64,000 nucleotides of DNA. Origin: Tenericutes bacterium HGW-Tenericutes-2 (GTDB lineage: Bacteria; Bacillota_I; Bacilli_A; Acholeplasmatales; Acholeplasmataceae). A program made the position numbers and the translations under genes. How positions within the stretch are numbered: position 1 is the first letter of the stretch; each line of letters begins with the position of its first letter. Location: positions 2,444 through 66,443 of the forward strand of contig PGXL01000009.1 in the NCBI GenBank assembly GCA_002839095.1, read 5' to 3'. Below are positions 16,636 to 55,965 of this stretch, in pieces. The notes beneath the pieces were generated by a model. That model was not told the DNA's origin and did not search any database. It worked only from the letters and a program-made list of their open reading frames with translations.

Positions 16636-16729
16636 CATTAACTTTATTTCTTAAGTTTCGCAAATAATAATCATCTATACATGTTTTCATGTATAATAAA
16701 CTTAACTTACACAAAAAGGTGGTGAAAGT

Positions 16730-36455: not shown

Positions 36456-36576
36456 ATATCACATAGTCAAACCATAATTAGGAGTACACTATGATTTTAG
36501 TCACTTTTGGTGTACAATTATAATGATGTGTAAATACATACATACGATACAAATCTATAAAACAAAAGGAGAATAT

Positions 36577-37488: not shown

Positions 37489-37489
37489 T

Positions 37490-37825
37490 ATGAAAAGCTT
37501 CGATATCAAAAGTGACATGCCACTCGCATCTGAAGCTGGAAGAAGACTTGCTTTGATTATAAGAAATTGTACTGGTAAGGATAAGGTCATTAAAATCGTT
37601 CACGGCTATGGTTCTTCTGGGATTGGTGGGTCAATCAAAACAGCAGTACACAAATCACTGCGCTCTAAAGTATCTAATGGAGAGATTAAAGCTTACATAC
37701 CAGGTGAAGCATTTTCTGTTATGATGGGTTTTGATGAGGTTATCCAAATGTACTCTAATTTAATTCAATCAGATTCTGATTATAAGAAAATGAATGATGG
37801 TATTACATATATAATTCTCAAATAG
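37490..37825 (+). CDS. Smr domain protein (degenerate N-terminal DxH region)
   Basis: Smr core KVIKIVHGYGSSG...IKTAVHKSLRS; ATG 2 nt after upstream stop (operonic). Confidence 0.6.
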   Translation: MKSFDIKSDMPLASEAGRRLALIIRNCTGKDKVIKIVHGYGSSGIGGSIKTAVHKSLRSKVSNGEIKAYIPGEAFSVMMGFDEVIQMYSNLIQSDSDYKKMNDGITYIILK

Positions 37826-37837
37826 GGGTGGGAACGT

Positions 37838-38656
37838 ATGACAATAGAACAACTAAAGAAAAGAAAAGATTATCTTGATAATATACTTATTCTTATTAGT
37901 TTTTTATTACTTATAGCAATTTCTATAGGCTTGGCAGTTCATTGGTTTTTTTTAATTGCATTATTGATTGCACTTTTTTTCATACCACATCAACTAGCTT
38001 ATAAAAAGCTCAAACTTGATTTCAAGAATCATCATGTTAAAAAAATGATTGATTCAATTATCCCAGGACTAACATATGTTCCTGAAAAAGGTTTTGATGA
38101 AAATGAGGTTTTTGAGTCAAAAGTTTTAAAAAAATTCACAACCTATAAAAGTGAAGACTATTTATCTGGAACTATCAAAGGTAAATCATTCGAGTCAGCA
38201 GATGTCAGAATCGAACAAGTGGTATCTAATGGTAAGACTACTACTAGAATTATAAGATTTTTAGGAAGACTCTTTATTCTAGATTTTCAGAAAAAATTTG
38301 AAAATGACGTATATATATCAACTGACAAAATACATAACCAGTCTATATTTTCTAATGACAAGAAAGTAAAAACAGAGTCCATTGAGTTTAACAAAAAATT
38401 TAGTGTATTTTCAGAATCACAACATTCAGCTTTTTATCTATTGACACCACGCTTTATGGAGAGACTAGAATCATTCTCAACGATTGCTAAGCACGTTATG
38501 TTTGCATTCAAGGATAACAAAGTATATATAGCTCTTCACACTGAAAGAGATGCATTTGATATAAAGTATAGCGATACAATTGATGTGAATTATATTGAAT
38601 TTGTTAAAGAAGAACTTAAACTTCTTGAAGATCTAGTTGCATTTATACCTCAATAA
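37838..38656 (+). CDS. Membrane protein, DUF3137-like (2 N-terminal TM helices + cytoplasmic domain), uncertain family
   Basis: GGGTGGGA SD; N-terminal TM hairpin, remainder soluble; tight spacing with Smr gene. Confidence 0.4.
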   Translation: MTIEQLKKRKDYLDNILILISFLLLIAISIGLAVHWFFLIALLIALFFIPHQLAYKKLKLDFKNHHVKKMIDSIIPGLTYVPEKGFDENEVFESKVLKKFTTYKSEDYLSGTIKGKSFESADVRIEQVVSNGKTTTRIIRFLGRLFILDFQKKFENDVYISTDKIHNQSIFSNDKKVKTESIEFNKKFSVFSESQHSAFYLLTPRFMERLESFSTIAKHVMFAFKDNKVYIALHTERDAFDIKYSDTIDVNYIEFVKEELKLLEDLVAFIPQ

Positions 38657-38678
38657 CAACCCCAAAGGTTGTTTTTTA
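38655..38678 (+). terminator. Rho-independent terminator
   Basis: aacaacc-ccaaa-ggttgtt + T-run. Confidence 0.75.
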
Positions 38679-38724
38679 ATTGAACATACATGGTAAAATA
38701 TAGTAAATACTAGGAGGTTTATCT

Positions 38725-39732
38725 ATGAATATTTCAAATTATTTCAAACCAAAAACCATGATTTATACGGGTAAGCATGTTAAAACACCGACATCCATCA
38801 AGCATTATGCTTATGATGCAAAATCACTACAAATCACTTCTGATTTTAAATCTAACAACCTAAAAAACTATATTCAAATTGTTGGATTATCCAATGTTGA
38901 AGAAATAGCAATCATTAAGAATCACTATAACATAGATTCTCTTATACTAGAAGACGTTTTTAATGTCAACCAAAGAAATAAGCTAGAAGTTATTGATAAT
39001 TCGATCTTTGGTGCTTTTCATGTCGAATATCTAGAAAATGATTATGTTAAAGAGGATTACATGAGTATGATCATGATTGAGAATACAATCATTACATTTC
39101 ATGAAACAGAACCTATATACTTAAAGTCACTAGATTCATTATTTAATGATCATAAGGAGCTTAGAGAAAGAAGTATTGATTATCTTTTATTCCAAATACT
39201 AGATATCATCACTGATAATCACTTGGATGTATATGATGAACTTGATCTAGCAATAAATATATTTGAGGAAGAAATTCTTGAAACAAAAAATATCGAGCAA
39301 GAAGATGTTTATTTGGTCAGAAAAAACATGCTTAAACTAAAAAACAATGTTACACCTATTTATGAACAGCTTGATAAAATACTTCTTAAACATCCTCAAT
39401 TATTTGCTGTTGAAAATAAGCTTTATTATGAAGACTTAAAGGACCATCTACAACGCTTAGATAGTAGAATCAATCAATCTAGAGAAGTCATGAGAAATTT
39501 ATTAGATCTTCATATGAATAACCAATCCAATAAGATGAATAAGATTATGGCTACACTAACACTTTTTTCAGCAATTTTTATTCCGTTGTCCTTTTTAACT
39601 GGATTCTTTGGAATGAACTTTGTTCACTTTGGAGTATTAGAGTACACGCATGCAGTTTTATTATTTACTGCAATGTGTGTGATTATAGCTGTTTCAATGG
39701 TTATTTTCTTTAAAAAGAGAAAATGGTTTTAA
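38725..39732 (+). CDS. corA: CorA family Mg2+/Co2+ transporter
   Basis: GMNF motif in penultimate TM (FFGMNF), two C-terminal TM helices, 335 aa. Confidence 0.85.
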   Translation: MNISNYFKPKTMIYTGKHVKTPTSIKHYAYDAKSLQITSDFKSNNLKNYIQIVGLSNVEEIAIIKNHYNIDSLILEDVFNVNQRNKLEVIDNSIFGAFHVEYLENDYVKEDYMSMIMIENTIITFHETEPIYLKSLDSLFNDHKELRERSIDYLLFQILDIITDNHLDVYDELDLAINIFEEEILETKNIEQEDVYLVRKNMLKLKNNVTPIYEQLDKILLKHPQLFAVENKLYYEDLKDHLQRLDSRINQSREVMRNLLDLHMNNQSNKMNKIMATLTLFSAIFIPLSFLTGFFGMNFVHFGVLEYTHAVLLFTAMCVIIAVSMVIFFKKRKWF

Positions 39733-39737
39733 CAAAA

Positions 39738-39763
39738 AAGGAGCGAGTGCTCCTTAATTTTTT
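39738..39763. terminator. Bidirectional terminator (corA / PucR-like gene)
   Basis: aaggagc-gagt-gctcctt + T-run. Confidence 0.8.
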
Positions 39764-41313
39764 CCTGGCTCAAAATTTTTATAAAGATAGAGTGCAAAAT
39801 ATAAATCGAAATGGCTTTCCTTGTTCGATAGTACACTAAATCCCAATTGTTCAATCACATCTAAACGATATCTCACAGTATTATAATGAATAAATAGCTT
39901 TTCTGCAGTATCCTTGGCATTGAATTTGCATTCTATATGTTTATAGAGTGTATCAATCAAAGGGGTACTATTTTTTTGCTCGTATTCAACAAGAGGTTTT
40001 AAAATGGAATAAACATATTCTTTTAGATTTCCATAATCAATATTTTTTAATAGGTTTAAAAGCTTGATATTATCTTCTGTGTATAAGTGAATGCCTAAAT
40101 TTTTATTTTCGATATGGATCATAGCCTCTGAAAGCTGGAAATAGGTCTTTGAAATATTTGCTGCATCGAAAATCAAATTGGAATAGGTAATTCTAAATTG
40201 AGATTCCTTATATTTGATTTTTAATGTATCATACACGTTTTGCATGGTTTCATGCATACTAATCGTCTCAATCGTATTGATAATAAAAAGCAATTGATCA
40301 TTTAAAAGTGTGTATCTAAGCTCCTCACTGTTCAAATGGAATTTATTGATAATCACGGTTCTAATATACTCAACCATATTTGGGTTGATCATATTTTTAT
40401 GATTTTCCTTGATAGAGAATAGAATTAATGTTACTGGGAAGATGACATTCCATTTATACCGTTTGGTCGCTTCTATCAATTGTGTATTCGTGTAATTGGA
40501 TGATAAATTGGAAACGAAATTCAATAAAAATTGATTTTGTTTTAATATGTTTTCTACTTTTTTCTGATGGATTACAATAATCATTAATTTAAATATTTCA
40601 ATATAGTTGTGTAAAATATGTCGTTTTTCATTTTTAGCCATAAAAACGAATCTATAAATTGGTTTATCATCATATATAACATCTTCAGAATAATAGAGTG
40701 CATCTCCAACACGCTGGAATAAATTTTTAGTAGTCTTGGATTGATTGAAGTAGTTTAGCATAATCTCATTTGAATAATATGTCGTTTTATTATCTGAGTT
40801 TTGAATTAATAGTTCAAGATCTGGAATCTTATCAACAATACTCATTAATGTTTTTGTCGATGGATTATCATACACTTGTTTTAGAAATAAAGAGTAGTTC
40901 GCATCGAAAGAGTAATTTGTGTAATCCTGAGTTTGAAGCTCGCTGAGTATATTATTAAACAGTAATGACAAATTTGCATCATAGTTTAATGCGACAATCG
41001 GAATATTTAACTGATCACTTAGCTTTAAAATTTCCTCAGGTATGATATCAATATATCTTTTCATTTTTATAAGGATTCCTGCGGTTTCCTTTTTATTTAA
41101 GGCAAACAATAAATGCTTAAAAGTTTCTACATCTGTTTTAACAGGATAAAAAGTAGTCAGTATTAGACTTCTTTCAATAATATAGTTTTCGAAATCAGGT
41201 GTCTCTAAAATAGATACACTTTCAAAGCTACGATTTAAGTGTTCCTTGGCAGTCAATATTTCATAGGATTCAAATATTTCTCTCTCAAACAAATCCTTTA
41301 ATGTGGTTTTCAT
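39754..41313 (-). CDS. PucR-family (purine catabolism regulator-like) transcriptional regulator
   Basis: C-terminal PucR-type HTH region; start set at ATG (cat 41311-41313) after GAGGTG SD; ORF-track start at 41340 is an extension. Confidence 0.6.
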   Translation of the reverse strand: MKTTLKDLFEREIFESYEILTAKEHLNRSFESVSILETPDFENYIIERSLILTTFYPVKTDVETFKHLLFALNKKETAGILIKMKRYIDIIPEEILKLSDQLNIPIVALNYDANLSLLFNNILSELQTQDYTNYSFDANYSLFLKQVYDNPSTKTLMSIVDKIPDLELLIQNSDNKTTYYSNEIMLNYFNQSKTTKNLFQRVGDALYYSEDVIYDDKPIYRFVFMAKNEKRHILHNYIEIFKLMIIVIHQKKVENILKQNQFLLNFVSNLSSNYTNTQLIEATKRYKWNVIFPVTLILFSIKENHKNMINPNMVEYIRTVIINKFHLNSEELRYTLLNDQLLFIINTIETISMHETMQNVYDTLKIKYKESQFRITYSNLIFDAANISKTYFQLSEAMIHIENKNLGIHLYTEDNIKLLNLLKNIDYGNLKEYVYSILKPLVEYEQKNSTPLIDTLYKHIECKFNAKDTAEKLFIHYNTVRYRLDVIEQLGFSVLSNKESHFDLYFALYLYKNFEPGKN

Positions 41314-41438
41314 TTGCTCACCTCTACCATATTTTAGCAATCATTGTTACAAATTACAAGAATCAAGCGTTTTTATTGTAAAGCATTGCTAATTACAAAC
41401 ACTATACCATTTTTGTATAATTAAACTACATTGAGGAG

Positions 41439-42971
41439 GTGTTTACTATTAAATACTTTGTTAAAAGCGACTGGAATGGATTCTTTGGATTGTTCACAAA
41501 TAACTTGACCAATATTTTAGTTATGGCCAGTTTACTTTCAGTTGTTGTAGGTCTACCAGGGAATATTGTCTATGGTAGAATCCTTCCAGCAGTGGGCTTA
41601 TCTATTTTCATCTCATCTATTTATTATAGCTTTATGGCAGTCAAGCTATCTAGAAAAGAAAAAAGAGATGATGTAACAGCTCTACCTGCAGGTACTTCGG
41701 TACCACATATGTTTTTAATTGTATTTTTAATCATAGGTCCTGTGTATTGGACAACTCAAAATGCTTATTTAGCATGGGCAGCTGGTCTAGTATGGTCTTT
41801 ATTAGAAGGTGTAATAGAGCTTTTAGGAAGCTTTATAGGTACAAAGGTTAGAAAAATACTTCCAAGAGCTGCAATGCTTGGATCACTTGCCGGTGTTTCC
41901 ATCACCTATATTGCATTAAATCCTGCATTTAGCATCTTTGCAATTCCTTATATTGGTCTAGTATCACTTGCTATCGTTTTACTTGGATGGGTTGGTAAGG
42001 TAAAAATGCCATTCAATATTCCAACTGGTCTTGTTGCTATTCTTGTCGGGGTCATTATAGGATGGGTGAGTGGTTTAATGAGTCTTGGTCCTCTATTAGA
42101 CAGTCTAAGAAGCATTACACTCGGTGCACCTGTACCAAGCTTTTCAAGATTTAGTGATGGCTTCCAAAGCGCATTACCATTTCTTTTCTCAGCAATTCCT
42201 CTAGGAATTTACAATTTCTTTGAAACCATTGATAATTGTGAATCTGCGGCAGTTGCAGGAGATCATTATTCAACAAGAGAAGCAATGATTGCAGATGGAA
42301 CAACAACCATCATTGGTTCTATATTTGGAAATCCTTTCCCAACAGCAATATTTATTGGTCATCCAGGTTGGAAGGAAGCAGGAGCAAGAATAGGATATTC
42401 ATTTGTTTCAGGACTTGTTCTATTTATTTTAACTTTATTTGGCATGATTTCAATTCTACTAAATATCATTCCAGTAGTCGCAATTCTACCTATCCTTCTT
42501 TATATAGGTATCGTAATCACTACACAAGCATTTACCTCTGTTTCACATAAATATGCACCAGCAGTTGTTTTAGCGATTGTTCCATGGTTAGCAGATTGGA
42601 CGAAAAATGCTGTAGATATCGCACTTGGTGCAGCAGGAACAAATGCTTCAACCATTGGTTTTGGTTTACTTGAAGGTAATGGCTTGAACTATTTTGGAAT
42701 GATGAATTTAGGTGCAGGTAGCATTATTGTTGGGATGATCTTAGGATCAATTGCTGTGTATATTATTGATCATAAATTTGTTCATGCAGCATTTACAACA
42801 ATCATTGCAGCTATCCTTACATTCTTTGGAATTATTCATTCAGGAGTTGTGACAGTAAATGCTAATCTTGAAATGACAATTGGATATTTACTCATTACAA
42901 CACTATTTATTGGATATTACCTATATTACAAATCGAAAGGAGAAAATCAAATTGAGAAAGTATCAAGTTGA
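41439..42971 (+). CDS. NCS2/AzgA-like nucleobase-type permease, paralog 1 (start codon uncertain)
   Basis: ~12-14 TM; alignable blocks to B. subtilis PbuG/AzgA family (..E..AGAR.G.. region: GHPGWKEAGARIGYS); GAGGAGG SD overlaps the annotated GTG, so true start may be non-canonical (ATT 41448) or read-through. Confidence 0.6.
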   Translation: MFTIKYFVKSDWNGFFGLFTNNLTNILVMASLLSVVVGLPGNIVYGRILPAVGLSIFISSIYYSFMAVKLSRKEKRDDVTALPAGTSVPHMFLIVFLIIGPVYWTTQNAYLAWAAGLVWSLLEGVIELLGSFIGTKVRKILPRAAMLGSLAGVSITYIALNPAFSIFAIPYIGLVSLAIVLLGWVGKVKMPFNIPTGLVAILVGVIIGWVSGLMSLGPLLDSLRSITLGAPVPSFSRFSDGFQSALPFLFSAIPLGIYNFFETIDNCESAAVAGDHYSTREAMIADGTTTIIGSIFGNPFPTAIFIGHPGWKEAGARIGYSFVSGLVLFILTLFGMISILLNIIPVVAILPILLYIGIVITTQAFTSVSHKYAPAVVLAIVPWLADWTKNAVDIALGAAGTNASTIGFGLLEGNGLNYFGMMNLGAGSIIVGMILGSIAVYIIDHKFVHAAFTTIIAAILTFFGIIHSGVVTVNANLEMTIGYLLITTLFIGYYLYYKSKGENQIEKVSS

Positions 42972-43614
42972 GGCAAAGCCATTTGTATTTGACTTTGACC
43001 TCGAAAAAACTGCACTTGTCATTATTGACATGCAAAGAGACTTCTGTGAGTTTGGCGGTTTTGGTGAAGCGTTGGGTAATGATATTACGCCAACAAAATC
43101 AATTATACCAACTGTTAGAAAAGTGCTAGATGCAGCAAGAGCTGCTCATATGTTTATCATTCATACAAGAGAAGGGCATCGACCGGATTTAAGCGATGTA
43201 CCTAAAGCGAAAAAGGTAAGATTTTCATCTATAGGTGAAATTGGACCTATGGGTAGAATATTAATTCGTGGTGAATATGGCCATGATATAGTAGATGAAT
43301 TAAAGCCACTTCCTGGAGAAGTTGTCATTGATAAGCCTGGTAAGGGTGCATTCTATGAAACGGATCTTCATTCAATTTTACAAAATAAAAATATTGAATC
43401 ACTCATCTTTTGTGGTGTAACTACACATGTTTGTGTACACACAACAATTCGTGAAGCAAACGATAGAGGATATGAATGTTTAATGCTAGAGGATGGAACA
43501 GCTGCATTTGATCCTAAAGATCAAGAAGCTGCAATTCGAATGATTAACCAACAAGGTGGTATCTTTGGTTGGACAACAACAAGTGAAGAACTACTTAAAA
43601 AACTAAAAAAATAA
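42952..43614 (+). CDS. Isochorismatase-family cysteine hydrolase (amidohydrolase)
   Basis: Isochorismatase fold signatures: ALVIIDMQRDF (Asp), K at ~+80, catalytic Cys in FCGVTTHVCV; TTG start 42952 with AAAGGAG SD 8 nt upstream (ORF track 42880 is an extension overlapping permease). Confidence 0.8.
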   Translation: MRKYQVEAKPFVFDFDLEKTALVIIDMQRDFCEFGGFGEALGNDITPTKSIIPTVRKVLDAARAAHMFIIHTREGHRPDLSDVPKAKKVRFSSIGEIGPMGRILIRGEYGHDIVDELKPLPGEVVIDKPGKGAFYETDLHSILQNKNIESLIFCGVTTHVCVHTTIREANDRGYECLMLEDGTAAFDPKDQEAAIRMINQQGGIFGWTTTSEELLKKLKK

Positions 43615-43626
43615 AGGAGAATACGA

Positions 43627-45153
43627 ATGTTTAAGAAGCTTGAAGGTGGCACACGTTGGTGGGTCAAGGGAGATTTAAATGGATTTTTCGGTTTGTTTTC
43701 TAATGTTTTAACTAATTTTTTAGCAGCAGTAGGACTTTTAATTATTATCGGTATGCCAAGTGATATCGTATTTGGTAATGTCGTACCAGGCACTGCAGTT
43801 GCAGTAGGTCTTGGTGGTATCATTTTAGCTTTTCAAGCTAAGCAATTATCTGTCAAGATGAAGAGAGATGACGTGACTGCAATGCCATATGGCCTATCAG
43901 TACCTCATTACTTCGTCGTTGCATTTGGTGTTATTGCAGTTGTTTATGCAACTACCAATGACTGGCAAACAGCTTGGGCTGCAGGTATCGTATGGAACTT
44001 TATTCAGGGTATTATTATGGGTATAGGTTCATTTGTTGGTATCTATATTAAGAAATATATTCCTCGTGCAGCAATGCTTGGTGCACTTGCGGGGTTAGCA
44101 ATTACATATATTGCTATGAATCCAGCAGGTCAAGTATTCACTACTCCATATATTGGAATGACATCACTTGCTATTATCTTTGTCGGTTGGTTTGCACTTA
44201 AGAAAATGCCATTTGGTATTCCTGCTGGTGCATTCGCGATTATGATTGGTACAATTCTTGCTTGGGCAACTGGTTATATGGATCCACAAGCAGTTGGTGA
44301 CTCATTCTCTAACGTAGGATTTAGCCTACCTGGCTTGGCACTAAATGTTTTTGGTCGGGGCTTTGCTCAAATTGCTCCATTCCTTCCAGCTGCAATTCCT
44401 TTAGCTATCTATGATTTCCTTGAAAGCTTAGATAATCTAGAATCTGCAGAAGTTTCTGGTGAAAAATATAACGTTCCAAAGGCTATGATGGTTCCTGCAG
44501 GATTAACGATTCTTGGTTCATTCTTAGGTTCTCCATTCCCAACAATCATCTACATTGGTCATCCTGGATGGAAATCAACAGGTGCACGTATAGGTTATTC
44601 ATGGGTAACTGGTGTCGCAGTCTTGTTACTTGCATTCCTAGGATTTATGAATTTTATCCTAGCTATTATTCCTCTGGTTGCATTACTACCAATTCTAATG
44701 TATATCGGTATGGTTATTACAACTCAAGCATTTGCTACCACTAAGAAAGAGCATATGCCAGCAGTAGCATTATCCTTTATTCCACTGATTGCAGGTTTTG
44801 TAACACTACAGGTTAAAAACGCGATTAACGCTACTGGTGGTACTCTAGACTATCAAGCCTTAGCGAACACAGGTATCCCACTACTTGGTTGGGAAAGACT
44901 TGCTGCAGGTGATATTTTAGTAGGGATGATGATCGCTACCATTGCAATCTTCATCATCGATAAGAAATTCTTAATCTCTGCAATATATGCTTTAATTACT
45001 GCAGCTCTTGCATTCTTTGGATTTATACATGCACCAGCAATTGGATTTGCTACAGGCTGGGAAGTTGCATTAGGTTATGTTGCAATGGCTCTTGTTCTAG
45101 TTGCGATGAATTTCTATCGCAGTCATGAAAATGTAGTCAGTGAGACAGAGTAG
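43627..45153 (+). CDS. NCS2/AzgA-like nucleobase-type permease, paralog 2
   Basis: AAAGGAG SD; same architecture and ~45% identity by eye to 41439 gene (GDLNGFFGLFSNVLTN, IGHPGWKSTGARIGYS). Confidence 0.65.
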   Translation: MFKKLEGGTRWWVKGDLNGFFGLFSNVLTNFLAAVGLLIIIGMPSDIVFGNVVPGTAVAVGLGGIILAFQAKQLSVKMKRDDVTAMPYGLSVPHYFVVAFGVIAVVYATTNDWQTAWAAGIVWNFIQGIIMGIGSFVGIYIKKYIPRAAMLGALAGLAITYIAMNPAGQVFTTPYIGMTSLAIIFVGWFALKKMPFGIPAGAFAIMIGTILAWATGYMDPQAVGDSFSNVGFSLPGLALNVFGRGFAQIAPFLPAAIPLAIYDFLESLDNLESAEVSGEKYNVPKAMMVPAGLTILGSFLGSPFPTIIYIGHPGWKSTGARIGYSWVTGVAVLLLAFLGFMNFILAIIPLVALLPILMYIGMVITTQAFATTKKEHMPAVALSFIPLIAGFVTLQVKNAINATGGTLDYQALANTGIPLLGWERLAAGDILVGMMIATIAIFIIDKKFLISAIYALITAALAFFGFIHAPAIGFATGWEVALGYVAMALVLVAMNFYRSHENVVSETE

Positions 45154-45931
45154 TATAACTTCAATCGATTGCAATGTTTTAGATGAAATCAAGATGAATG
45201 GTGCAACTATACAAGGTGTCTATAGGAGTACCATTCATCTTTCCTTAAGGGACTCTATCGTAACATTGGGAAATCGAGTGACTTCAGGAAAACATCATAT
45301 TACAATTTTTGAAGATTTAGACTTTGGGATATATGATTTAACTCCTGGAAAGAAAATAGTTATTGATCAGGATAAAATGCTTATTGGTGATCTTGAATTT
45401 GAAATCAATAAAGAAACAGTAAAGAGCTTTGAACCCTATAGCAAGATATATAAGATCAATACAGGAGTTATCAATGTGCTGAGAAAGCTAAAAAAAATGC
45501 TTAATGAAGGGCACAATCAAAATCTATTCTCTTATAACAAAAATGATGCATTACTCAAATATCAATTTGAAAAAATTGATGTCTTTTTGAACAGTCCAGG
45601 ATTGCCGAGTTCATTATCTATACTCGGTTTAGGTATGGGTTTAACTCCTTTAGGAGATGATATTCTTACAGGATTTATATTAGGGCTAAATTCTGTAGGT
45701 AAATCTTTACCTTGGATTCCCGCACTAATTAAGGAAGCATCTAAAAAAACGAGCAAACTTTCTGCTCAAAACTTAAAGGATACATATGAAAGATATTATC
45801 CTCAGGTCTTTATTGATTTGCTTGATGGATTGTTTCTTGATTATGATGTAGAAAAAGCAAAAACTATATTAAATTTAGGTGCAACTAGCGGAGCTGGAAT
45901 TCTCACCGGATTTATTTATGGACTCATGTAG
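45140..45931 (+). CDS. DUF2877 protein (YlbF/AllH-like, putative oxamate carbamoyltransferase subunit); start uncertain (GTG 45140 or ATG 45194)
   Basis: Size (~260 aa) and position adjacent to fdrA-like and DUF1116 genes as in E. coli fdrA-ylbE-ylbF-ybcF. Confidence 0.55.
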   Translation: MRQSSITSIDCNVLDEIKMNGATIQGVYRSTIHLSLRDSIVTLGNRVTSGKHHITIFEDLDFGIYDLTPGKKIVIDQDKMLIGDLEFEINKETVKSFEPYSKIYKINTGVINVLRKLKKMLNEGHNQNLFSYNKNDALLKYQFEKIDVFLNSPGLPSSLSILGLGMGLTPLGDDILTGFILGLNSVGKSLPWIPALIKEASKKTSKLSAQNLKDTYERYYPQVFIDLLDGLFLDYDVEKAKTILNLGATSGAGILTGFIYGLM

Positions 45932-45941
45932 GAGCGATGAT

Positions 45942-47477
45942 ATGAAAAATTACAAAATATTAAAAAACAGTTATTATGATTCTGTTACCTTAATGAGTAC
46001 AACAGTAGCACTCAAAAAGGAATTCAATTTTAAAGAGCTTGTGATGTTTATGGGAACTGACATGAATAAGGACATGATTAAGTCAGTTGGTTTGTTCCAT
46101 GAAGAATTATCTTCAGCTGAACCCAATGACTTGATGCTTTCTGTAGAAATGTCAGAAGAAAACTCAAATTGGGTTGAAGAAATACTTTCTAGATTGTCAG
46201 CTAAAAAATCAACAGCTAAGGAATCTGATAAGATATATAAAACAATCAATCAAGCCATTGATGATTTAAACCCTAATATCGCTGTTATCAGTGTTCCAGG
46301 TATTTATGCAGCAAATGAAGCCTACAAGGCATTGGAAAAAAATTTGCATGTCATGCTTTTTTCAGATAATGTTAGTGTAGAAGATGAAATTGAACTCAAA
46401 GAGATAGGGATTAGGAAGAATTTACTTGTTATGGGACCTGATTGTGGAACTGCTATAATCAATGGAAAAGGTTTATGCTTCGCAAATCAAATCCGAAGAG
46501 GAAGTATTGGACTAGTTGCTGCAAGCGGAACAGGTCTACAAGAGGTTAGTGTTATTATCGACAAATTTGGAGGAGGAATCACTCAGGCTATTGGAGTTGG
46601 TGGTAGAGATCTATCAGAACAAGTCGGTGGACGGATGATGTTGATGGGTATCGATGCATTAGAACAAGATGAACTAACAAAGGTTATTGTTTTAATCTCT
46701 AAGCCTCCTCATCAAACTGTGCTAGATAAAATTCTAGCAAAGCTCAAATCGATAAAGAAACCTGTTGTACTATGTCTTTTAGATGCAAAGCTAGATGAGA
46801 AAATTAAAAACGTGTATTTCGTTTCGACATTAACTGAAGCATCTATTCAAGCATTAAAGCTGATAGGATTTGATACACCTGATTTACTTCAAGTCGATCA
46901 AGAGATGAAAGGCTTGATTCAAAAACATCAAAAGAAATTTAGTCCTTCACAAACCAAGGTGAAGGGGTTATTTTGTGGTGGTACATTAACAGCGGAGTCA
47001 CTCAGCATACTAAGACCTATCCTAAAGTTAATTAAAAGTAATGTTGCAAAAAAGGATTATGAAAAGATGGAAAACCCACTCATATCTAACGGTAATAATT
47101 TGGTTGATCTAGGTGATGATATCTTTACACAAGGTAAACCACATCCAATGATTGAACCTACAATTCGATTAGAGCGTATTTTAGAGGAAGCCAATAATTC
47201 TGAAACTGCAGTATTATTACTTGATTTTGAGCTTGGCATTGGCTCACATGATGATCCAGTTGGCGTAACGTTAGATACACTTGTTGAAGCGCAAAACATA
47301 GCAAAGAACAATGGCAGACATTTGTCTATCGTTTCTTATGTTTGTGGAACTGATAAGGATCATCAAGGATTACAAAATTCAGAAAATAGATTAAAGGAGA
47401 TTGGTGTGATTGTTGCAAAAACGAATGCACATGCTGCAATCATCGCTGGTGAACTATTAAAAGAGGTGAAAAAATGA
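45942..47477 (+). CDS. fdrA: FdrA-like (AllF-like) CoA-binding/succinyl-CoA-synthetase-fold protein
   Basis: TAGGAGCG SD; N-terminus KNSYYDSVTLM resembles FdrA (..FQDSVSLM..); CoA-binding and ligase-CoA-like regions; 511 aa. Confidence 0.7.
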   Translation: MKNYKILKNSYYDSVTLMSTTVALKKEFNFKELVMFMGTDMNKDMIKSVGLFHEELSSAEPNDLMLSVEMSEENSNWVEEILSRLSAKKSTAKESDKIYKTINQAIDDLNPNIAVISVPGIYAANEAYKALEKNLHVMLFSDNVSVEDEIELKEIGIRKNLLVMGPDCGTAIINGKGLCFANQIRRGSIGLVAASGTGLQEVSVIIDKFGGGITQAIGVGGRDLSEQVGGRMMLMGIDALEQDELTKVIVLISKPPHQTVLDKILAKLKSIKKPVVLCLLDAKLDEKIKNVYFVSTLTEASIQALKLIGFDTPDLLQVDQEMKGLIQKHQKKFSPSQTKVKGLFCGGTLTAESLSILRPILKLIKSNVAKKDYEKMENPLISNGNNLVDLGDDIFTQGKPHPMIEPTIRLERILEEANNSETAVLLLDFELGIGSHDDPVGVTLDTLVEAQNIAKNNGRHLSIVSYVCGTDKDHQGLQNSENRLKEIGVIVAKTNAHAAIIAGELLKEVKK

Positions 47478-48895
47478 GCATCAACAAGCTTTTTAGTGAA
47501 GAACTTAAAGTTGTGAATATTGGTTCACCTAGTTTTAAGAATGATTATGAAAAACAAGAAATCGAGTATATTCATTTGAATTGGGCTCCACCTGCATCAG
47601 GGAACTTACAAACATTAAATCAACTGAGTCAAATTAGACCGTATATGGATAAAATTCATAAAGCCAATGAACAAGCTGTCCAAAAAATAAAAGCAGCAGA
47701 AGCTAGGCTCATAGCTGTCAAAAAAGCATATGATGTGATTCCAAATATGAGTAAAAATACAATTTTACATGCTGGACCACCAATCGAATTCAAAAGAATG
47801 GCAGGTCCAATGCGGGGTGCAATTATTGGTGCATTGATTTATGAGGGATTAGCAAAAAACGAAAAAGAAGCGATTAAGCTTGCTGAGTCTGGTGATATAG
47901 AATTTGATAGTGCTCATCATCATGATGCTGTTGGCCCAATGGCTGGTATTATTTCAGCATCCATGCCAGTTCATGTGCTATATAACATTATCGATAAAAA
48001 TTATAGCTATTGCACAATCAATGAAGGATTAGGCAAGGTGTTAAGATATGGAGCAAACAGCGAAGATGTTATTAAACGCTTGAAGTGGATTGAGCATACA
48101 TTTCAGCCTGTAATGAATGAGGCGTTAATTCTTTCAGGTGGTATTGATGTTAAAAGCATCATTACACAGGCATTACATATGGGTGATGAATGTCACAACA
48201 GAAATAAGGCATCCTCAGCACTATTTTTAAGAGAAATAGCCACACATGTTCTATCTACACAATTTACCGATCAAGAGAAAAAGGAAGTCATTGAGTTTAT
48301 TAAGAATAATGAGCATTACTTTCTAAATCTATCTATGCCTTATTGTAAGCTTGCACTGGATTCCGCAAGAAACATTAAATATTCTACCGTGGTCATCGCA
48401 ATGAGTAGAAATGGTGTTGATTTCGGAATCCAGCTTGCACATAGCAATACATGGTACAAGGCTCCAGCAAATTATGTAAAAGGGTTAATGTTTCCAGGAT
48501 TTAATGAAGATGATGCTGCTCCAGATATTGGAGATAGTGCAATCACTGAAACCTGTGGTATTGGTGGATTTGCTATGGGTGGAGCACCAGCGATTGTCCA
48601 GTTTGTAGGTGGTGTTGTCAAACAAGCATTTGATTACTCGAAGGAGATGCATGAAATAACAGCAGGTAGACATCAAGTATTTACCCTGCCACCACTTGAT
48701 TTTATGCCAACTGCTGTTGGTATCGAAATGACTAAGGTACTAGAGACTGGTATTTTACCAATCATTAATACTGGAATGGCTCATAAGGATGCTGGAGTAG
48801 GTCAAGTAGGTGCTGGTCTTGTTCATCCACCAATGGCTTGTTTTGAGAAGGCTTTGAAAGGATTTTTAGAAGAATTAAAGGAGGATAACAAATGA
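47474..48895 (+). CDS. DUF1116 protein (YlbE/AllG-like)
   Basis: AAAGAGGTG SD; ATGA overlap with fdrA; size 473 aa and gene order match fdrA-ylbE arrangement. Confidence 0.6.
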   Translation: MSINKLFSEELKVVNIGSPSFKNDYEKQEIEYIHLNWAPPASGNLQTLNQLSQIRPYMDKIHKANEQAVQKIKAAEARLIAVKKAYDVIPNMSKNTILHAGPPIEFKRMAGPMRGAIIGALIYEGLAKNEKEAIKLAESGDIEFDSAHHHDAVGPMAGIISASMPVHVLYNIIDKNYSYCTINEGLGKVLRYGANSEDVIKRLKWIEHTFQPVMNEALILSGGIDVKSIITQALHMGDECHNRNKASSALFLREIATHVLSTQFTDQEKKEVIEFIKNNEHYFLNLSMPYCKLALDSARNIKYSTVVIAMSRNGVDFGIQLAHSNTWYKAPANYVKGLMFPGFNEDDAAPDIGDSAITETCGIGGFAMGGAPAIVQFVGGVVKQAFDYSKEMHEITAGRHQVFTLPPLDFMPTAVGIEMTKVLETGILPIINTGMAHKDAGVGQVGAGLVHPPMACFEKALKGFLEELKEDNK

Positions 48896-49818
48896 AAATT
48901 TTAGTTGCACTAGGTGGTAACGCTCTTGGTGATACTCCAGAAGAACAAAAAGAACTCGTTAAGCATGCAGCTGATAGCGTTGCTGATTTGGTAGAACAGG
49001 GACATAAGGTAGTAGTTGTACATGGCAATGGACCTCAGGTTGGCTTAATTCAGAGTGCATTTGAAATAGCAAATGAAGTGAAACCCAATATGCCTTTGAT
49101 GCCTTTGCCTGAATGTGGAGCAATGAGCCAAGGATATATAGGTTATCATCTTCAAAATGCGATTTACAATTCTTTACTAAATAGAAACATTCATAAAGAT
49201 GTAGTCACTGTTGTCACACAAACAGTTGTAGATCCAAATGATCAAGCATTTAAAAACCCTTCTAAACCAATTGGAAAGTTTTATACTAAAGAAGAATCAG
49301 AAAAAATGGTAAAGCAATACAATATTCCAATGGTTGATGATTCAGGAAGAGGGTATAGACTTGTTGTACCAAGCCCAATGCCAATCGATATTATCGAAAA
49401 AAACGTTATTAAGGAGCTACTAGAAAATGATCATATTGTAATCGCATCTGGTGGTGGTGGAATACCTGTAATCAAAAAAGATACTTTAATGGGTGTTGCT
49501 GCGGTTATTGATAAGGATTTTAGTAGTGCAAAACTAGCTGAGTTGATTAAGGCAGATGTTTTTATCATACTCACAGCAGTAAAAAGAGTTTCAATTAACT
49601 TTAGGAAGCCTAATGAACTTGAATTTTCTAAATTATCAGTTAAGGAAGCTAAGCATTATATCGATATCAATATGTTTGGCAAGGGTAGCATGGAGCCAAA
49701 AATAGTCGCAGCTGTATCTTTTGTTGAAGCAAACAAGAACGGTCAAGCCATTATTGCTAGCCTAGAAGACGCTGCTCTTGCTGTAAAAGGAAAAGCAGGA
49801 ACAATAATCTATTCATAA
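48892..49818 (+). CDS. Carbamate kinase
   Basis: AAGGAGG SD; N-terminal MKILVALGGNAL, VVHGNGPQVG, C-terminal GGGGIPV - canonical carbamate kinase/amino-acid kinase family. Confidence 0.9.
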   Translation: MKILVALGGNALGDTPEEQKELVKHAADSVADLVEQGHKVVVVHGNGPQVGLIQSAFEIANEVKPNMPLMPLPECGAMSQGYIGYHLQNAIYNSLLNRNIHKDVVTVVTQTVVDPNDQAFKNPSKPIGKFYTKEESEKMVKQYNIPMVDDSGRGYRLVVPSPMPIDIIEKNVIKELLENDHIVIASGGGGIPVIKKDTLMGVAAVIDKDFSSAKLAELIKADVFIILTAVKRVSINFRKPNELEFSKLSVKEAKHYIDINMFGKGSMEPKIVAAVSFVEANKNGQAIIASLEDAALAVKGKAGTIIYS

Positions 49819-49820
49819 AA

Positions 49821-49841
49821 AAAAGGCGTTATGCCTTTTTT
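49821..49841 (+). terminator. Rho-independent terminator after carbamate kinase
   Basis: aaaggc-gttat-gccttt + T-run, directly followed by upp SD. Confidence 0.65.
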
Positions 49842-49853
49842 AAGGAGGGAAAT

Positions 49854-50477
49854 ATGCCATATCAAGTATTCAATCATCCATTAATGAAACATAAGATGAC
49901 GATTATTAGAGATAAAAACTGCGGAACCAAAATGTTTCGAGAAGTTATTGAAGAACTCACAGCATTAATGGTTTACGAAATTAGTAGAGATTTAGAATTA
50001 GCTGAAGTAGAAATTGAAACACCTATTGCTAAGGCAACAGGTTATCAAATGGTCAAGGATATTGTGATTGTTCCAATTTTAAGGGCAGGATTAGGTATGA
50101 CTCAAGGGATTCAAAATCTTATACCTTCTGTAAAAATAGCTCATGTTGGAATGTTTAGAAACCCAGATACACTACTACCTGAGATATACTATGCAAAATT
50201 TCCTAACAACATTCAAAATGCAAAAACGTATATATTAGACCCTTTGCTTGCTACTGGCGGATCAGTCTTAGCTGCAATTGATTTACTGAAAGCAAAAAAT
50301 GTTAAGGATATCTCTGTGTTATCCATCATCGGAGTAGATACTGGTATTCAAAAAATACTAAATAAATATCCAGATATTCAGATTTATTTGATTAGCAAGG
50401 ATGAAAAACTGAATGATCATGCATATATAGTACCTGGTTTAGGTGATGCTGGGGATCGGTTATTTGGAACAAAATAA
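49854..50477 (+). CDS. upp: Uracil phosphoribosyltransferase
   Basis: 207 aa; PRPP-binding motif YILDPLLATGGS, conserved Upp N-terminus; AAGGAGGG SD. Confidence 0.95.
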   Translation: MPYQVFNHPLMKHKMTIIRDKNCGTKMFREVIEELTALMVYEISRDLELAEVEIETPIAKATGYQMVKDIVIVPILRAGLGMTQGIQNLIPSVKIAHVGMFRNPDTLLPEIYYAKFPNNIQNAKTYILDPLLATGGSVLAAIDLLKAKNVKDISVLSIIGVDTGIQKILNKYPDIQIYLISKDEKLNDHAYIVPGLGDAGDRLFGTK

Positions 50478-50479
50478 AA

Positions 50480-50505
50480 AGTTGGATATTTTCCAACTTT
50501 TTTTA
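50480..50505. terminator. Bidirectional terminator (upp / GntR)
   Basis: agttgga-tattt-tccaact + T-run. Confidence 0.8.
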
Positions 50506-51267
50506 CTTGAAATATTTGATAATATCATCCTCTTCTAAGGTTGAAGGAATACGATGTCTTGGTGCACACCATAGCTCACCATATTCGATGAGTCTATCAT
50601 ACTGATCATATGCATGGGTAATCTCATAAAAAATTGGCATGTCCTTAGAAATGTTTAATAAAGATGAAATCTCATCACTACTCGAAACAATGTTTAGATT
50701 ACGCTTTGATTTACTCATAATGATTTCGTATTCTTTTCTAAAGAAGGAGTAAAACATTTTATTAGTCATGTCAACCTGATCTAAATCAGTAAATATATCG
50801 AGTGGAAAATACATGCTTGCAATAAATAAGGGCTGATTGTTGGATTTATATAGTCTAGAAAAATAAACTAAGTCTTGATTTACACGAAATCCAGTCAGTA
50901 ATGCAATCTCATCCGTAGCCTTTAGGGCTATTTTTTTCAATAGGACCACCTCTGGAGTTTCACCGGATGATTTCAATGTATCATTTACATGAATTAACTT
51001 ATTATGAAACACATTTGGATTCGCATTATAGGTAACTTCATAATGATTATTTATTTTAATGACTAATGCCATATCAATAAGTTTTTTATATGCGCTTCTG
51101 ATAGCAGTAGTAGGAACATGTAATTCTTCTGAAAGTTCTTCAGCACTAGGCAAACTATCACCATTCTGAATCTTTAGTTTCATGATACCTACATAAATGT
51201 AATCCTTGATTTGATCAACGATAGAAACAGTCGATCTTTTATCGATTGCCAGTTTAATATTTTTCAT
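50503..51267 (-). CDS. GntR-family regulator, HutC/UTRA subfamily (paralog A)
   Basis: N-terminal wHTH (LPSAEELSEELHVPTTAIRSAYKKLIDMALV), C-terminal UTRA-like effector domain; start set at ATG 51267 (GGAGG SD). Confidence 0.75.
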   Translation of the reverse strand: MKNIKLAIDKRSTVSIVDQIKDYIYVGIMKLKIQNGDSLPSAEELSEELHVPTTAIRSAYKKLIDMALVIKINNHYEVTYNANPNVFHNKLIHVNDTLKSSGETPEVVLLKKIALKATDEIALLTGFRVNQDLVYFSRLYKSNNQPLFIASMYFPLDIFTDLDQVDMTNKMFYSFFRKEYEIIMSKSKRNLNIVSSSDEISSLLNISKDMPIFYEITHAYDQYDRLIEYGELWCAPRHRIPSTLEEDDIIKYFK

Positions 51268-51991
51268 TCTCAATGACCTCCTCAAATTTTACATAATCGC
51301 CTGGAAGTGCATGGAGTATAACTGCAATAATTCTATTTTCAATATCAACAACTCTGGTGGTCGCAAAGTATATCTTATCCTTAATTTCAATGCCTAAAAG
51401 AAGGGCTTCAACATTACCAGCTTCGCTGGCTATAATGTCTGTATAAATTCCAGAGATTTGATATTTATAATCGTTAGTAATCAAGGAGAAAAGATTATCT
51501 GTTAAATCTACTTTCTTCTCAATATTTTGAAAATATTTATATGGGAAATAAATTCTTTGCAAAGAGATTGGATAATTTCCGATAAGTAATCGGTAGCTAA
51601 TGTCATATGTCATTTCACCCTTTTGTAATCCTAAAATAGGATATACTTGTTTTCTATAATCCACAGAGCCTATGACAACAACTTCTTTCTTGGCTTGATT
51701 ACCAAAATTAAATATATCCTTAACAGTACCATTGAAATGATATCTTCGATTGACGAAGGAACCATACCCTTGTTTGCTTATTACTAAGCCTTTTTTAATC
51801 AAATCTTCGTATGCTCTTCTAATGACAGATCTGCTCAGACCAAAAAGATCACAAAGATCCTTTTCTGTAGGGAGTTTATCCAAATGTCTAAGTTGATTTG
51901 AGTATATTGCATTTTCTATTGCTTTAGTAATCTGCTTGTAAATGGGCACCTTAGAAAACTTATCAATATAAATAGGTATCACTTGAATCAC
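51254..51991 (-). CDS. GntR-family regulator, HutC/UTRA subfamily (paralog B)
   Basis: wHTH (LPTEKDLCDLFGLSRSVIRRAYEDLIKKGLV) + UTRA-like domain. Confidence 0.75.
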   Translation of the reverse strand: MIQVIPIYIDKFSKVPIYKQITKAIENAIYSNQLRHLDKLPTEKDLCDLFGLSRSVIRRAYEDLIKKGLVISKQGYGSFVNRRYHFNGTVKDIFNFGNQAKKEVVVIGSVDYRKQVYPILGLQKGEMTYDISYRLLIGNYPISLQRIYFPYKYFQNIEKKVDLTDNLFSLITNDYKYQISGIYTDIIASEAGNVEALLLGIEIKDKIYFATTRVVDIENRIIAVILHALPGDYVKFEEVIENEKY

Positions 51992-52729: not shown

Positions 52730-53245
52730 ATGAATGCACATTCACAGATTACTAGTGAAAAGCTTGCTCTTTTTTACTTGCAATTAGAAAAGAACAAAGT
52801 ATTACCTGGACCATTGATGCCGACACTACATGATGCTCAGCATATTTTTGGTTATATACCATTATCAATTCAAAAAATTATTTCAAAAGAACTTGGCGAA
52901 AGTATTGCTAAGATCAATGGAGTTGTTACCTTTTATGGTAACTTCTCAGTAACACCTAAAGGTAAAAAAACGATTGGTGTTTGTCTTGGAACTGCCTGCT
53001 ATGTAAGAGGTTCTAAGAATATTATGGACACCATCGAAGATGATTTAAAAATTAAATCTGGCGAGACAACAAAGGATGGAGAGATTACTCTAACTGCAAC
53101 ACGCTGTATAGGCGCATGTGGACTAGCTCCAGTTTTTTCCGTTGGTGATCATATTTATGGGAATTCAAACGTTTCTAAAGCCAAGCAAGTCTTAAAGGAA
53201 ATGAGAGAAGCAGCTGAAAATAAGGTAAAAGCCGATGAAGCTTAG
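52730..53245 (+). CDS. hydC: NuoE-like [2Fe-2S] thioredoxin-fold subunit (HydC of HydABC-type hydrogenase)
   Basis: AAAGGAG SD; Cys pattern C..C...C(x35)C in GVCLGTACYVRG ... RCIGACGLAP. Confidence 0.85.
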   Translation: MNAHSQITSEKLALFYLQLEKNKVLPGPLMPTLHDAQHIFGYIPLSIQKIISKELGESIAKINGVVTFYGNFSVTPKGKKTIGVCLGTACYVRGSKNIMDTIEDDLKIKSGETTKDGEITLTATRCIGACGLAPVFSVGDHIYGNSNVSKAKQVLKEMREAAENKVKADEA

Positions 53246-55956: not shown

Positions 55957-55965
55957 GGCGAAATC

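Follow-up and report, generated by a model that had tools for sequence, protein, structure and literature searches.

A PucR-linked gene cluster that may couple a TrtA-like hydrolase to an AllFGH/YahEFG-type carbamoyltransferase and carbamate kinase: a candidate route from polyureides to ATP

The operon and the proposed pathway

A stretch of 64,000 nucleotides (nt) from Tenericutes bacterium HGW-Tenericutes-2 (contig PGXL01000009.1, positions 2,444 to 66,443; called the window below) carries an eight-gene unit at 39754-49818. The list of open reading frames (ORFs) and profile searches revealed that seven plus-strand genes form one series and that a pucR gene is divergent from them. The seven genes encode, in order, permease A, a cysteine amidohydrolase similar to the triuret hydrolase TrtA, permease B, the AllH-, AllF- and AllG-like subunits of a carbamoyltransferase, and a carbamate kinase. 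We give somewhat better than an even chance to the reading that this is an operon, controlled by PucR, which serves to take up a polyureide (triuret, biuret or a compound derived from cyanuric acid) and to gain energy from it by phosphorolysis of an N-carboxy-ureide. A first-pass annotation, made from the sequence alone, had listed the same eight genes, whose homologies are far above chance. It had also proposed that a ureido compound is imported, de-amidated or trans-carbamoylated, and used to gain ATP, and this general idea fits all findings on the locus. Each protein family is known, and the route itself appears to be undescribed; what seems to be new is that a transferase-kinase module of the AllFGH/YahEFG type would be fed by a TrtA-like hydrolase.

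The proposed scheme starts from what is observed at the locus, namely its gene content, the homologies, the active-site signature of the hydrolase and the conserved linkage of the genes. Two paralogous permeases of the UraA fold would import a neutral, planar substrate. The TrtA-like hydrolase would take off one terminal amide as ammonia, which turns triuret into 1-carboxybiuret and/or biuret into allophanate. AllH-AllF-AllG, of the Yah type, would then move the terminal carbamoyl group onto phosphate to give carbamoyl phosphate, and the co-product would be allophanate from carboxybiuret or carbamate from allophanate. Finally, carbamate kinase would convert carbamoyl phosphate and ADP into ATP, ammonia and CO2. 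In the subtype found in the window, which has no AtzF, allophanate would be either a second substrate of AllHFG, so that up to two ATP are formed per triuret, or lost; this is the least supported step. We infer which compound is the substrate, that the hydrolase acts before the transferase, and that the transferase accepts N-carboxy-ureides. Besides the hydrolase and the transferase the operon has no catabolic enzyme, and no known partner of either half, upstream or downstream, lies in the 64 kb. The scheme is the simplest one that uses every enzyme of the locus and no other.

The three ureides in question are 1-carboxybiuret (H2N-CO-NH-CO-NH-COO-), allophanate (H2N-CO-NH-COO-) and oxalurate (H2N-CO-NH-CO-COO-), and the first two bracket oxalurate in length. 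By this analogy, 1-carboxybiuret and allophanate can be regarded as close aza-analogues of oxalurate, with the carbamoyl-amide-carboxylate layout in all three. The AllFGH enzyme of Escherichia coli converts oxalurate and phosphate into oxamate and carbamoyl phosphate and is coupled to the carbamate kinase AllK (PMC11326118). Furthermore, cyanuric acid hydrolase and TrtA both yield 1-carboxybiuret, and the biuret hydrolase BiuH yields allophanate (PMC7948467).

The cysteine hydrolase is closest to TrtA

The hydrolase (42952-43614, plus strand, 220 amino acids (aa)) has the isochorismatase-like fold (PF00857, 164 bits) and finds its best PDB match in triuret hydrolase TrtA (6XIX, the best, and 6XJ4; 258 bits, 55% identity, residues 5-213), and the alignment takes in the N-terminal hairpin region that BiuH lacks. 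The next matches are biuret hydrolases (221-229 bits), RutB (113 bits) and N-carbamoylsarcosine amidase (38-39 bits). The first-pass annotation had compared this protein with RutB and N-carbamoylsarcosine amidase, and these scores, set against the 258 bits for TrtA, do not bear out that likeness. The BiuH equivalog model NF050097 gave 285.9 bits, under its cut-off of 370, and the RutB model gave 127.7 bits with a cut-off of 378.

In TrtA, D24, K129 and C162 form the catalytic triad, E72, K132 and Q202 contact the substrate, and D24 and E72 bind the neutral ureide; six positions (F35, N41, A134, E160, Y187 and I205 in TrtA) separate it from BiuH (PMC7948467). The hydrolase of the window keeps the triad and all three contacts and is TrtA-like at F35, N41, A134 and I205. 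Position 160 is His (Glu in TrtA, Asp in BiuH) and position 187 is Phe (Tyr in TrtA, Thr in BiuH). Twelve of the 14 active-site and second-shell positions are as in TrtA, the changes being E160H and Y187F; the 14-position signature reads DFFNEKKATHCFQI in the window, DFFNEKKATECYQI in TrtA and DFYYEKKSTDCTQV in the BiuH type. The BiuH residues Y35, Y41, S134, D160, T187 and V205 differ from those of the window at all six positions. H160 and F187 were found in all of the 120 closest database homologues (at least 68% identical), which belong to Mycoplasmatota, Erysipelotrichales, Tissierella, Peptoclostridium, Carnobacterium, Amphibacillus and other groups. Among TrtA mutants, E160D keeps 50% of the activity and Y187T less than 10% (PMC7948467). 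Judged from the alignments, the hydrolase belongs to the triuret/biuret hydrolase clade, nearest TrtA, and is predicted to have a TrtA pocket with two changes.

The operon can be compared with the TrtA-(TrtB)-BiuH-AtzF pathway of Herbaspirillum and Rhizobium (PMC7948467). The window hydrolase shares the fold, the triad and 12 of the 14 signature positions of TrtA, and loci related to the window hold BiuH, AtzF and the same permease family. Unlike that pathway, the window lacks BiuH and AtzF and has a carbamoyltransferase and a kinase in place of the downstream steps. The known pathway releases ammonia only, whereas the steps of the window would conserve energy, and its hosts are plant-associated aerobes rather than a fermentative anaerobe.

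The carbamoyltransferase subunits and carbamate kinase resemble the yah genes

The AllH/YahE-like subunit (45194-45931, plus strand) matches DUF2877 (PF11392; 59.2 bits, cut-off 25). The AllF/YahF-like subunit (45942-47477, plus strand, 511 aa) is a member of the FdrA family, which is related to the succinyl-CoA synthetase alpha subunit; it matches PRK06091 (470.5 bits, cut-off 433) and also PF00549 and PF02629, and PF27530 (HMA_AllF_N) is among its precomputed matches. The AllG/YahG-like subunit (47474-48895, plus strand, 473 aa) matches DUF1116 (PF06545; 302.3 bits), and it matches PDB entry 3CLQ, an 'uncharacterized protein' (E = 1.8e-125). The carbamate kinase (48892-49818, plus strand) matches TIGR00746 (arcC) with 361.9 bits, the cut-off being 358.25. 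These profile searches confirmed both the homology to AllF, AllG and AllH and the adjoining catabolic carbamate kinase that had been proposed before, and on this comparison the membership in the FdrA, DUF1116 and DUF2877 families is secure. The start codon of allG overlaps the stop codon of allF (ATGA) and that of the kinase gene overlaps the stop of allG, by 4 nt each; permease A and the hydrolase gene overlap by 20 nt, and the other gaps are 10-40 nt.

The first-pass annotation had described these four genes as a copy of the E. coli fdrA-ylbE-ylbF-ybcF block, in that order, and as a 10-kb unit. The real order is allH-allF-allG-kinase, the four enzyme genes take up about 4.7 kb, and 10 kb is the length of all eight genes. 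Moreover, the yah paralogues of E. coli are closer than the all genes. The AllF-like subunit is 44% identical to YahF and 35% to AllF, the AllG-like subunit is 47% identical to YahG over its full length and about 44-45% to AllG (44% when aligned from residue 60), and the kinase is 41% identical to YahI and 38% to AllK. The AllH-like subunit aligned with YahE over the full length (22%, E = 1e-7 by BLASTP) and with AllH/YlbF in part (E = 9e-5). The cluster yahE-yahF-yahG-(yahH)-yahI has the same gene order, each of the four proteins has its closest E. coli counterpart there, and the subunit lengths agree as well, since YahF and YahG have 515 and 472 aa whereas AllF and AllG have 555 and 419 aa. 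About 50 residues are shifted from the C-terminus of AllF to the N-terminus of AllG; residues 7-55 of the window AllG (N-terminus, 47474-47640) correspond to residues 507-555 at the C-terminus of E. coli AllF (positions 507-551 of the profile). The boundary between the two genes (AllF C-terminus 47330-47477, AllG N-terminus 47474-47640) has the layout common to E. coli YahF and YahG. By gene order, subunit boundary and identity, the block thus appears to resemble yahE-yahF-yahG-yahI more than allFGHK. The identities are too modest to establish orthology between the window and yah genes. The neighbours of the yah cluster are YahD (ankyrin repeat) and YahJ (amidohydrolase) rather than a TrtA-like hydrolase or this permease, and YahJ is absent from the window.

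Like E. coli AllFGH with AllK (PMC11326118), the window has FdrA, DUF1116 and DUF2877 subunits encoded together with a catabolic carbamate kinase, and the expected chemistry is phosphorolysis of an N-acyl urea to carbamoyl phosphate and then ATP. It differs from allFGHK in that the order is H-F-G-K instead of F-G-H-K and that allD, allC and allE are not neighbours; its partners are the TrtA-like hydrolase and two permeases, and the substrate is therefore probably not oxalurate. In addition, because the block is closer to the yah paralogue, oxalurate is not the default substrate. We found no functional study of E. coli yahEFGI in the literature; since AllFGH is the only characterised enzyme, the substrate cannot be transferred by homology. 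Neither the window AllF nor its E. coli counterparts AllF and YahF contain a succinyl-CoA-synthetase-type phosphohistidine motif (GHAG), so the motif offers no clue to the mechanism.

The operon might nevertheless serve an oxalurate pathway of the E. coli type, in which the permeases import oxalurate or a precursor, AllHFG forms oxamate and carbamoyl phosphate, and the hydrolase makes oxalurate from an amide precursor or converts oxamate into oxalate. We give this little credence. In its favour, true homology links AllF, AllG and AllH to the one enzyme of the family that has been characterised, and E. coli AllG, an oxalurate enzyme, nests among AllG proteins linked to TrtA; it is 49-54% identical to the proteobacterial and chloroflexal ones and about 45% to that of the window. 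Because of this nesting, the phylogeny of AllG fails to separate the substrates. In contrast, tblastn with E. coli AllA, AllB, AllC, AllD, AllE, Gcl, Hyi, GlxR and GlxK gave no match in the 64-kb window, and homologues of AllB, AllC, AllD and AllE were found in none of the first 80 related loci. Among the Pfam-annotated gene calls of the whole window there is no allantoinase, allantoate amidohydrolase, ureidoglycolate dehydrogenase, urease, amidase or second isochorismatase. The earlier statement that the block has no allantoin genes as neighbours is thus upheld for the 64 kb. The greater closeness to yahEFGI also speaks against oxalurate, and the pocket of TrtA, which binds a neutral ureide through D24 and E72, would be a poor fit for an anion such as oxamate. 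Furthermore, the partners in related loci (BiuH, AtzF, the AH_C domain and AtzD) act on ureides that have C-N bonds only and cannot give the C-C bond of oxalurate.

A neighbour-joining tree of AllG placed the window clade beside YahG, but the tree is star-like, and as a separator of oxalurate-type from TrtA-linked enzymes it was uninformative and was set aside.

The hydrolase and the transferase genes are linked across phyla

A scan with the hydrolase of one genome per species and of a metagenome collection gave 160 loci (L numbers below), and their neighbours were mapped by tblastn. Counts on loci with the hydrolase subtype of the window (H160 loci) and on loci with the exact 14-position TrtA signature (exact-TrtA loci) cover loci of at least 10 kb. 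Antisense ORFs had entered an ORF clustering of the neighbours in high-GC loci (clusters 6 and 8), and the tblastn maps were used instead.

AllF/AllG is present in 40 of the 44 H160 loci, beside the hydrolase, so that the 'non-canonical partners' of the first-pass annotation turned out to be the usual ones once neighbourhoods were compared. PucR was found in 35/44 of these loci, carbamate kinase in 33/44 and two permeases in 31/44, and PucR lies beside the operon in 34 of the 40 that have AllFG. A BiuH-type paralogue occurs in 7/44 H160 loci, and this co-occurrence argues against simple redundancy with BiuH. The permease family of the window flanks the hydrolase in most loci. Among the 80 genome loci L001-L080, the kinase gene is present in 23 of the 33 with AllF/AllG and in one of the 47 without. 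The identical eight-gene layout was observed in Peptoclostridium acidaminophilum DSM 3953 and Tissierella sp. MB52-C2. The closest genome, MO-XQ (an unclassified Mycoplasmatota bacterium), also has the same gene order, with proteins 62-88% identical to those of the window and a more diverged AllH (35%). The permease-hydrolase-AllHFG-kinase set spans at least seven phyla (Mycoplasmatota, Bacillota, Actinomycetota, Chloroflexota, Pseudomonadota, Verrucomicrobiota and Methylomirabilota); it is a conserved module that is widespread in anaerobic Bacillota and Mycoplasmatota. One metagenome-assembled genome (MAG) labelled Staphylococcus epidermidis (L002, CAMBSI010000008.1) has a full operon, and its hydrolase is 81% identical to that of the mollicute; this label is probably a binning or labelling error.

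Among the 66 exact-TrtA loci, 26 carry AllF/AllG, and these come from Alpha- and Betaproteobacteria, Chloroflexota, Actinomycetota, Verrucomicrobiota and Methylomirabilota. A BiuH paralogue is present in 2/26 loci with AllF/AllG vs 12/40 without (p = 0.035), while an allophanate hydrolase or a stand-alone AH_C domain is present in 14/26 vs 10/40 (p = 0.02). BiuH would be dispensable in exact-TrtA loci with AllFG because AllHFG would convert carboxybiuret to allophanate, and the anti-correlation of AllF/AllG with BiuH suggests replacement, not independence. A compact set of TrtA, permease, AtzF, AllH/F/G and kinase recurs in L020, L022, L037, L146, L148, L166 and L170. TrtA, AllHFG, kinase and AtzF would mineralise triuret fully only if AllHFG turns carboxybiuret into allophanate. 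Typical arrangements are kinase-AllG-AllF divergent from AtzF-TrtA-permease, and AllH-F-G-kinase-TrtA-permease-AH_C.

It is possible to read the locus as two independent nitrogen-scavenging functions, one that takes ammonia from triuret or biuret and another in which AllHFG and the kinase act on oxalurate or another ureide from elsewhere; we consider this unlikely. It is the published reading for biuH and allFGHK in comammox bacteria and ammonia-oxidising archaea (PMC12625717), and 40 of the 66 exact-TrtA loci have the hydrolase and permease without AllF/AllG, which indicates that the hydrolase module can stand alone. However, the linkage is near-obligatory in the subtype of the window (40/44), the genes overlap, and AllF/AllG is anti-correlated with BiuH. 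Separate halves would also be dead ends, as neither a consumer of carboxybiuret or biuret nor a producer of oxalurate was found in the window or the loci.

Like the window, comammox Nitrospira and ammonia-oxidising archaea have biuH/trtA beside allFGHK without upstream purine or allantoin genes (PMC12625717). That study (2025) differs from ours in that the organisms are aerobic nitrifiers, the transporter is BmpA-NupABC and not a member of this permease family, and coupling of the two functions was not proposed. Beyond this co-location in nitrifiers, we found no paper in the full-text literature that ties AllFGH, FdrA or DUF1116 to triuret, carboxybiuret, allophanate or cyanuric acid.

Two loci have two AllF-AllG pairs each (L120:2598-5566 and 10740-13658; L122:7973-10909 and 14828-17823), of which one is 51-60% and the other 40-42% identical to the window proteins. 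This suggests that the doubled genes are paralogous transferases with different substrates.

Cyanuric acid hydrolase accompanies the operon in close relatives

Cyanuric acid hydrolase was found in 4/44 H160 loci, inside the locus of four close relatives (L092, L107, L118 and L121). In L092, an Erysipelotrichales MAG, one side of the pucR gene has the permease, the H160-type hydrolase and AllH-F-G, and the other side has a Xan_ur_permease gene, a hydrolase with the BiuH signature, a cyanuric acid amidohydrolase, a cytosine-deaminase-like amidohydrolase and a 413-aa membrane protein. With the cyanuric acid equivalog model NF052395 (cut-off 360), the ring-opening enzyme of L092 reached 547 bits; in the PDB it is nearest the cyanuric acid hydrolase of Moorella, with 486 bits vs 308 for barbiturase. 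Assignment as a barbiturase was rejected on these scores. The metagenomic loci L107, L118 and L121 have the cyanuric acid hydrolase and a membrane protein of about 413 aa within the locus. Besides these, L097 and L098, whose hydrolases are 91-92% identical to that of the window, have a BiuH-type gene directly upstream of AllH-F-G-kinase.

These loci also bear on the possibility that the substrate is some other ureide or amide of anaerobic purine or pyrimidine breakdown (e.g. of the ureidomalonate type) and that the H160/F187 hydrolase has diverged from TrtA to use it, a reading that seems improbable to us. E160H and Y187F are invariant in the 120 closest homologues, PucR is a regulator type of purine catabolism, upp is adjacent, triuret is to our knowledge no known metabolite of anoxic habitats, and L092 has a cytosine-deaminase-like amidohydrolase and a Xan_ur_permease gene beside the locus. 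Against this, the ring-opening enzyme of L092 is by score a cyanuric acid hydrolase and not a barbiturase, H160 hydrolases are also found in classical clusters with BiuH and AtzF or amidase (L010, L050, L069), and the remaining active-site contacts are all those of TrtA.

Two further proteins of these loci can be mentioned. The polytopic membrane protein of about 413 aa (L092:3429-4670) matches no Pfam family, is a candidate cyanurate transporter, and is also present in L097 and L127, where no cyanuric acid hydrolase was detected. The cytosine-deaminase-like amidohydrolase adjoins the cyanuric acid hydrolase in L092 (2234-3409) and L121 (398-1549); the L092 protein is 26% identical to E. coli YahJ (L082:11126-12508), and L121 carries a homologue of it. 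One may take this as a hint that an amino-triazine or an aza-pyrimidine-type compound is processed by the yah cluster.

The fate of allophanate and the weight of the polyureide reading

1-Carboxybiuret is labile, with a half-life of about 20 min in vitro (PMC7948467), and it could decarboxylate to biuret. The transferase would then act on neutral ureides: AllHFG would split biuret (or triuret) into carbamoyl phosphate and urea (or biuret), and the cell would excrete the urea or use it elsewhere. In line with this reading, biuret and triuret likewise belong to the N-acyl ureas, and stand-alone AH_C domains by AllFG-kinase could be N-carboxy decarboxylases. In our view it has only a slim chance. 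It makes the hydrolase unnecessary or even competing, yet the hydrolase is the most tightly linked partner; the allophanate hydrolase in 11/26 AllFG-positive exact-TrtA loci would be left without a substrate in the absence of BiuH; the characterised member of the transferase family uses a carboxylate-bearing ureide (PMC11326118); and there is no urease in the 64-kb window.

Stand-alone genes for the C-terminal domain of allophanate hydrolase (PF21986, 129-140 bits) adjoin AllF-AllG-kinase in L024, L027, L029, L040, L046, L050 and L053 (e.g., L053:14576-14929), and the amidase domain is absent in most such loci, L050 being the exception. These AH_C proteins might be N-carboxy decarboxylases.

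Several points weigh against breakdown of a polyureide by the window operon. We know of no established natural source of triuret or cyanurate in anoxic habitats. The main weakness is that the preferred model rests entirely on gene context and analogy. Full-length allophanate hydrolase is present in 0/44 H160 loci, the window locus included, and the fate of allophanate thus depends on a presumed second specificity of the transferase. As the hydrolase differs from TrtA at positions 160 and 187, its substrate could be biuret or another ureide. The nesting of E. coli AllG among TrtA-linked AllG, described above, counts in the same direction. Furthermore, the co-occurrence statistics ignore phylogeny and are confined to a view of +/-10 kb, and the sole paper that notes co-location of the hydrolase with allFGHK reads two separate pathways (PMC12625717). 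We go further only with rather less confidence than an even chance: FdrA/DUF1116/DUF2877 enzymes may be general N-acyl/N-carboxy-urea phosphorylases, which here would form carbamoyl phosphate from carboxybiuret and allophanate, so that triuret, biuret or cyanuric acid is fermented with up to two ATP per molecule.

Relation to other carbamoyl phosphate pathways

In the arginine deiminase pathway, the agmatine deiminase/putrescine transcarbamylase pathway and allantoin fermentation, a ureido compound is converted to carbamoyl phosphate, from which carbamate kinase forms ATP (PMC3282769, PMC6022934). The window operon would have the same energetic logic as these substrate-level phosphorylation pathways. 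Those pathways use single-gene transcarbamylases of the ATCase/OTCase fold on N-alkyl ureas, whereas the transferase of the window is of an unrelated three-subunit type and would act on an N-acyl or N-carboxy urea.

If the proposed pathway is true, it is a new anaerobic route of substrate-level phosphorylation and places polyureides beside arginine, agmatine and allantoin among the sources of carbamoyl phosphate. To ferment triuret, biuret or cyanuric acid would be a type of energy metabolism that has so far gone unrecognised. Polyureides come from oxidation of urate and guanine, from impurities of fertiliser and feed, and from breakdown of s-triazines. The transcarbamylase family, for which genes have been known only since 2024, would gain a second substrate class, a function would be defined for a permease family that has no Pfam model, and the E. 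coli genes yahEFG-yahI-yahJ would receive a first functional lead. It would also account for the joint occurrence of trtA/biuH and allFGHK in nitrifiers and in many soil and gut bacteria. Because there are cultured carriers, among them Peptoclostridium acidaminophilum DSM 3953, Tissierella sp. MB52-C2 and Paraliobacillus sp. PM-2, the hypothesis is directly testable.

The two permeases

Permease A (41439-42971, plus strand, 510 aa, start codon uncertain) and permease B (43627-45153, plus strand) are paralogues, 45% identical over 505 residues (E = 2e-153). In Pfam, permease A gave only a sub-threshold match to Xan_ur_permease (16.7 bits, E = 0.003, cut-off 27), and permease B gave no match up to E <= 10. 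A profile of 18 family members found nothing in the PDB at E <= 1, though UraA, UapA and AZG1/2 are present there. The AlphaFold2 model of permease B (pLDDT 85.7, pTM 0.82) has short strands at residues 88-90 and 306-308, and Foldseek matched it to SVCT1, SLC26Dg, UraA, UapA and AZG1/2 with probability 1.0, TM-scores of 0.5-0.6 and 12-18% identity. The model is about equally near AZG, SLC26 and SLC23. This suggests that the permeases form a distinct, unclassified family with the UraA-type (UraA/SLC23/SLC26) 7+7 fold and are not demonstrably AzgA-like. Homologues are annotated in their source databases as 'xanthine permease' or 'AGZA family'. The first-pass description of the permeases as AzgA-like is thus supported by the fold and these labels but not by any sequence match in Pfam or the PDB, and plain purine-base transporters unrelated to the enzymes are not what the loci indicate, since the permeases are tied to the hydrolase across phyla.

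The automated start of permease A, ATG 41523, cuts off the N-terminal motif of the family, YFVKSDWNGFFGLF. The ORF from GTG 41439 holds this motif, and an ATT at 41448 sits 8 nt after a GGAGG. An orthologue of permease A, 80% identical and in the equivalent position, was found in L001.

Regulator, control region and boundaries of the operon

The pucR gene (39754-41313, minus strand) encodes a regulator of 519 aa with an N-terminal PucR domain (PF07905, 71.7 bits) and a C-terminal HTH_30 domain (PF13556, 55.3 bits), as in PucR-family regulators, which bears out the earlier call of a PucR-type protein. Other contigs of the same organism carry an identical 519-aa gene call. The starts of PucR (41313), the hydrolase (42952), AllH (45194) and AllF (45942) were refined from gene calls on the same contig in public metagenome assemblies. 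Between pucR and permease A lies a divergent control region (41314-41438) with promoter-like sites at 41392-41421 on the plus strand (10/12 matches) and at 41359-41331 on the minus strand (with an extended TG), and with a GGAGG before the permease ORF. A scan of 38500-51500 with Rfam at E <= 1 gave three matches, all at chance level, and no riboswitch or other known RNA element.

On the left, a hairpin resembling a bidirectional intrinsic terminator (39738-39755, both strands) lies in the gap between corA and pucR; its 7 pairs, 4 of them G-C, are followed by a T-run. On the right, directly 3' of the kinase stop codon, there is a weak terminator-like hairpin with an A-tract, a stem and a T-tract (49819-49841, plus strand; -9.8 kcal/mol, z = -2.5 vs shuffles). 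The unit is thus bounded by terminator-like elements, as had been proposed.

Neighbouring genes and the host

The uracil phosphoribosyltransferase gene upp (49854-50477, plus strand; PF14681 233 bits, NF001097 263 bits) begins 35 nt after the kinase gene, past the weak hairpin alone. It is probably an adjacent gene outside the pathway. The kinase-upp adjacency is kept in the mollicute relatives L001 and L094-L102 and not in Bacillota relatives, and co-expression of the two genes by read-through is possible. Directly downstream of upp are two tandem GntR/UTRA regulator genes (50503-51991, minus strand).

Gene calls over the whole window include an H+-pyrophosphatase, a pyruvate kinase and a HydABC-type [FeFe] hydrogenase, and from these calls the host is a fermentative anaerobe. 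The hydrogenase cluster (52730-59531), of the electron-bifurcating HydABC type (2Fe-2S thioredoxin-like, Complex1_51K and Fe_hyd_lg_C proteins), is interleaved with HATPase_c and PHP-domain proteins. Upstream of corA, at 36523-38656, genes for an NYN/OST-HTH (LOTUS) protein, a small Smr-like protein and a DUF3137 protein stand in a row, which is an unusual trio.

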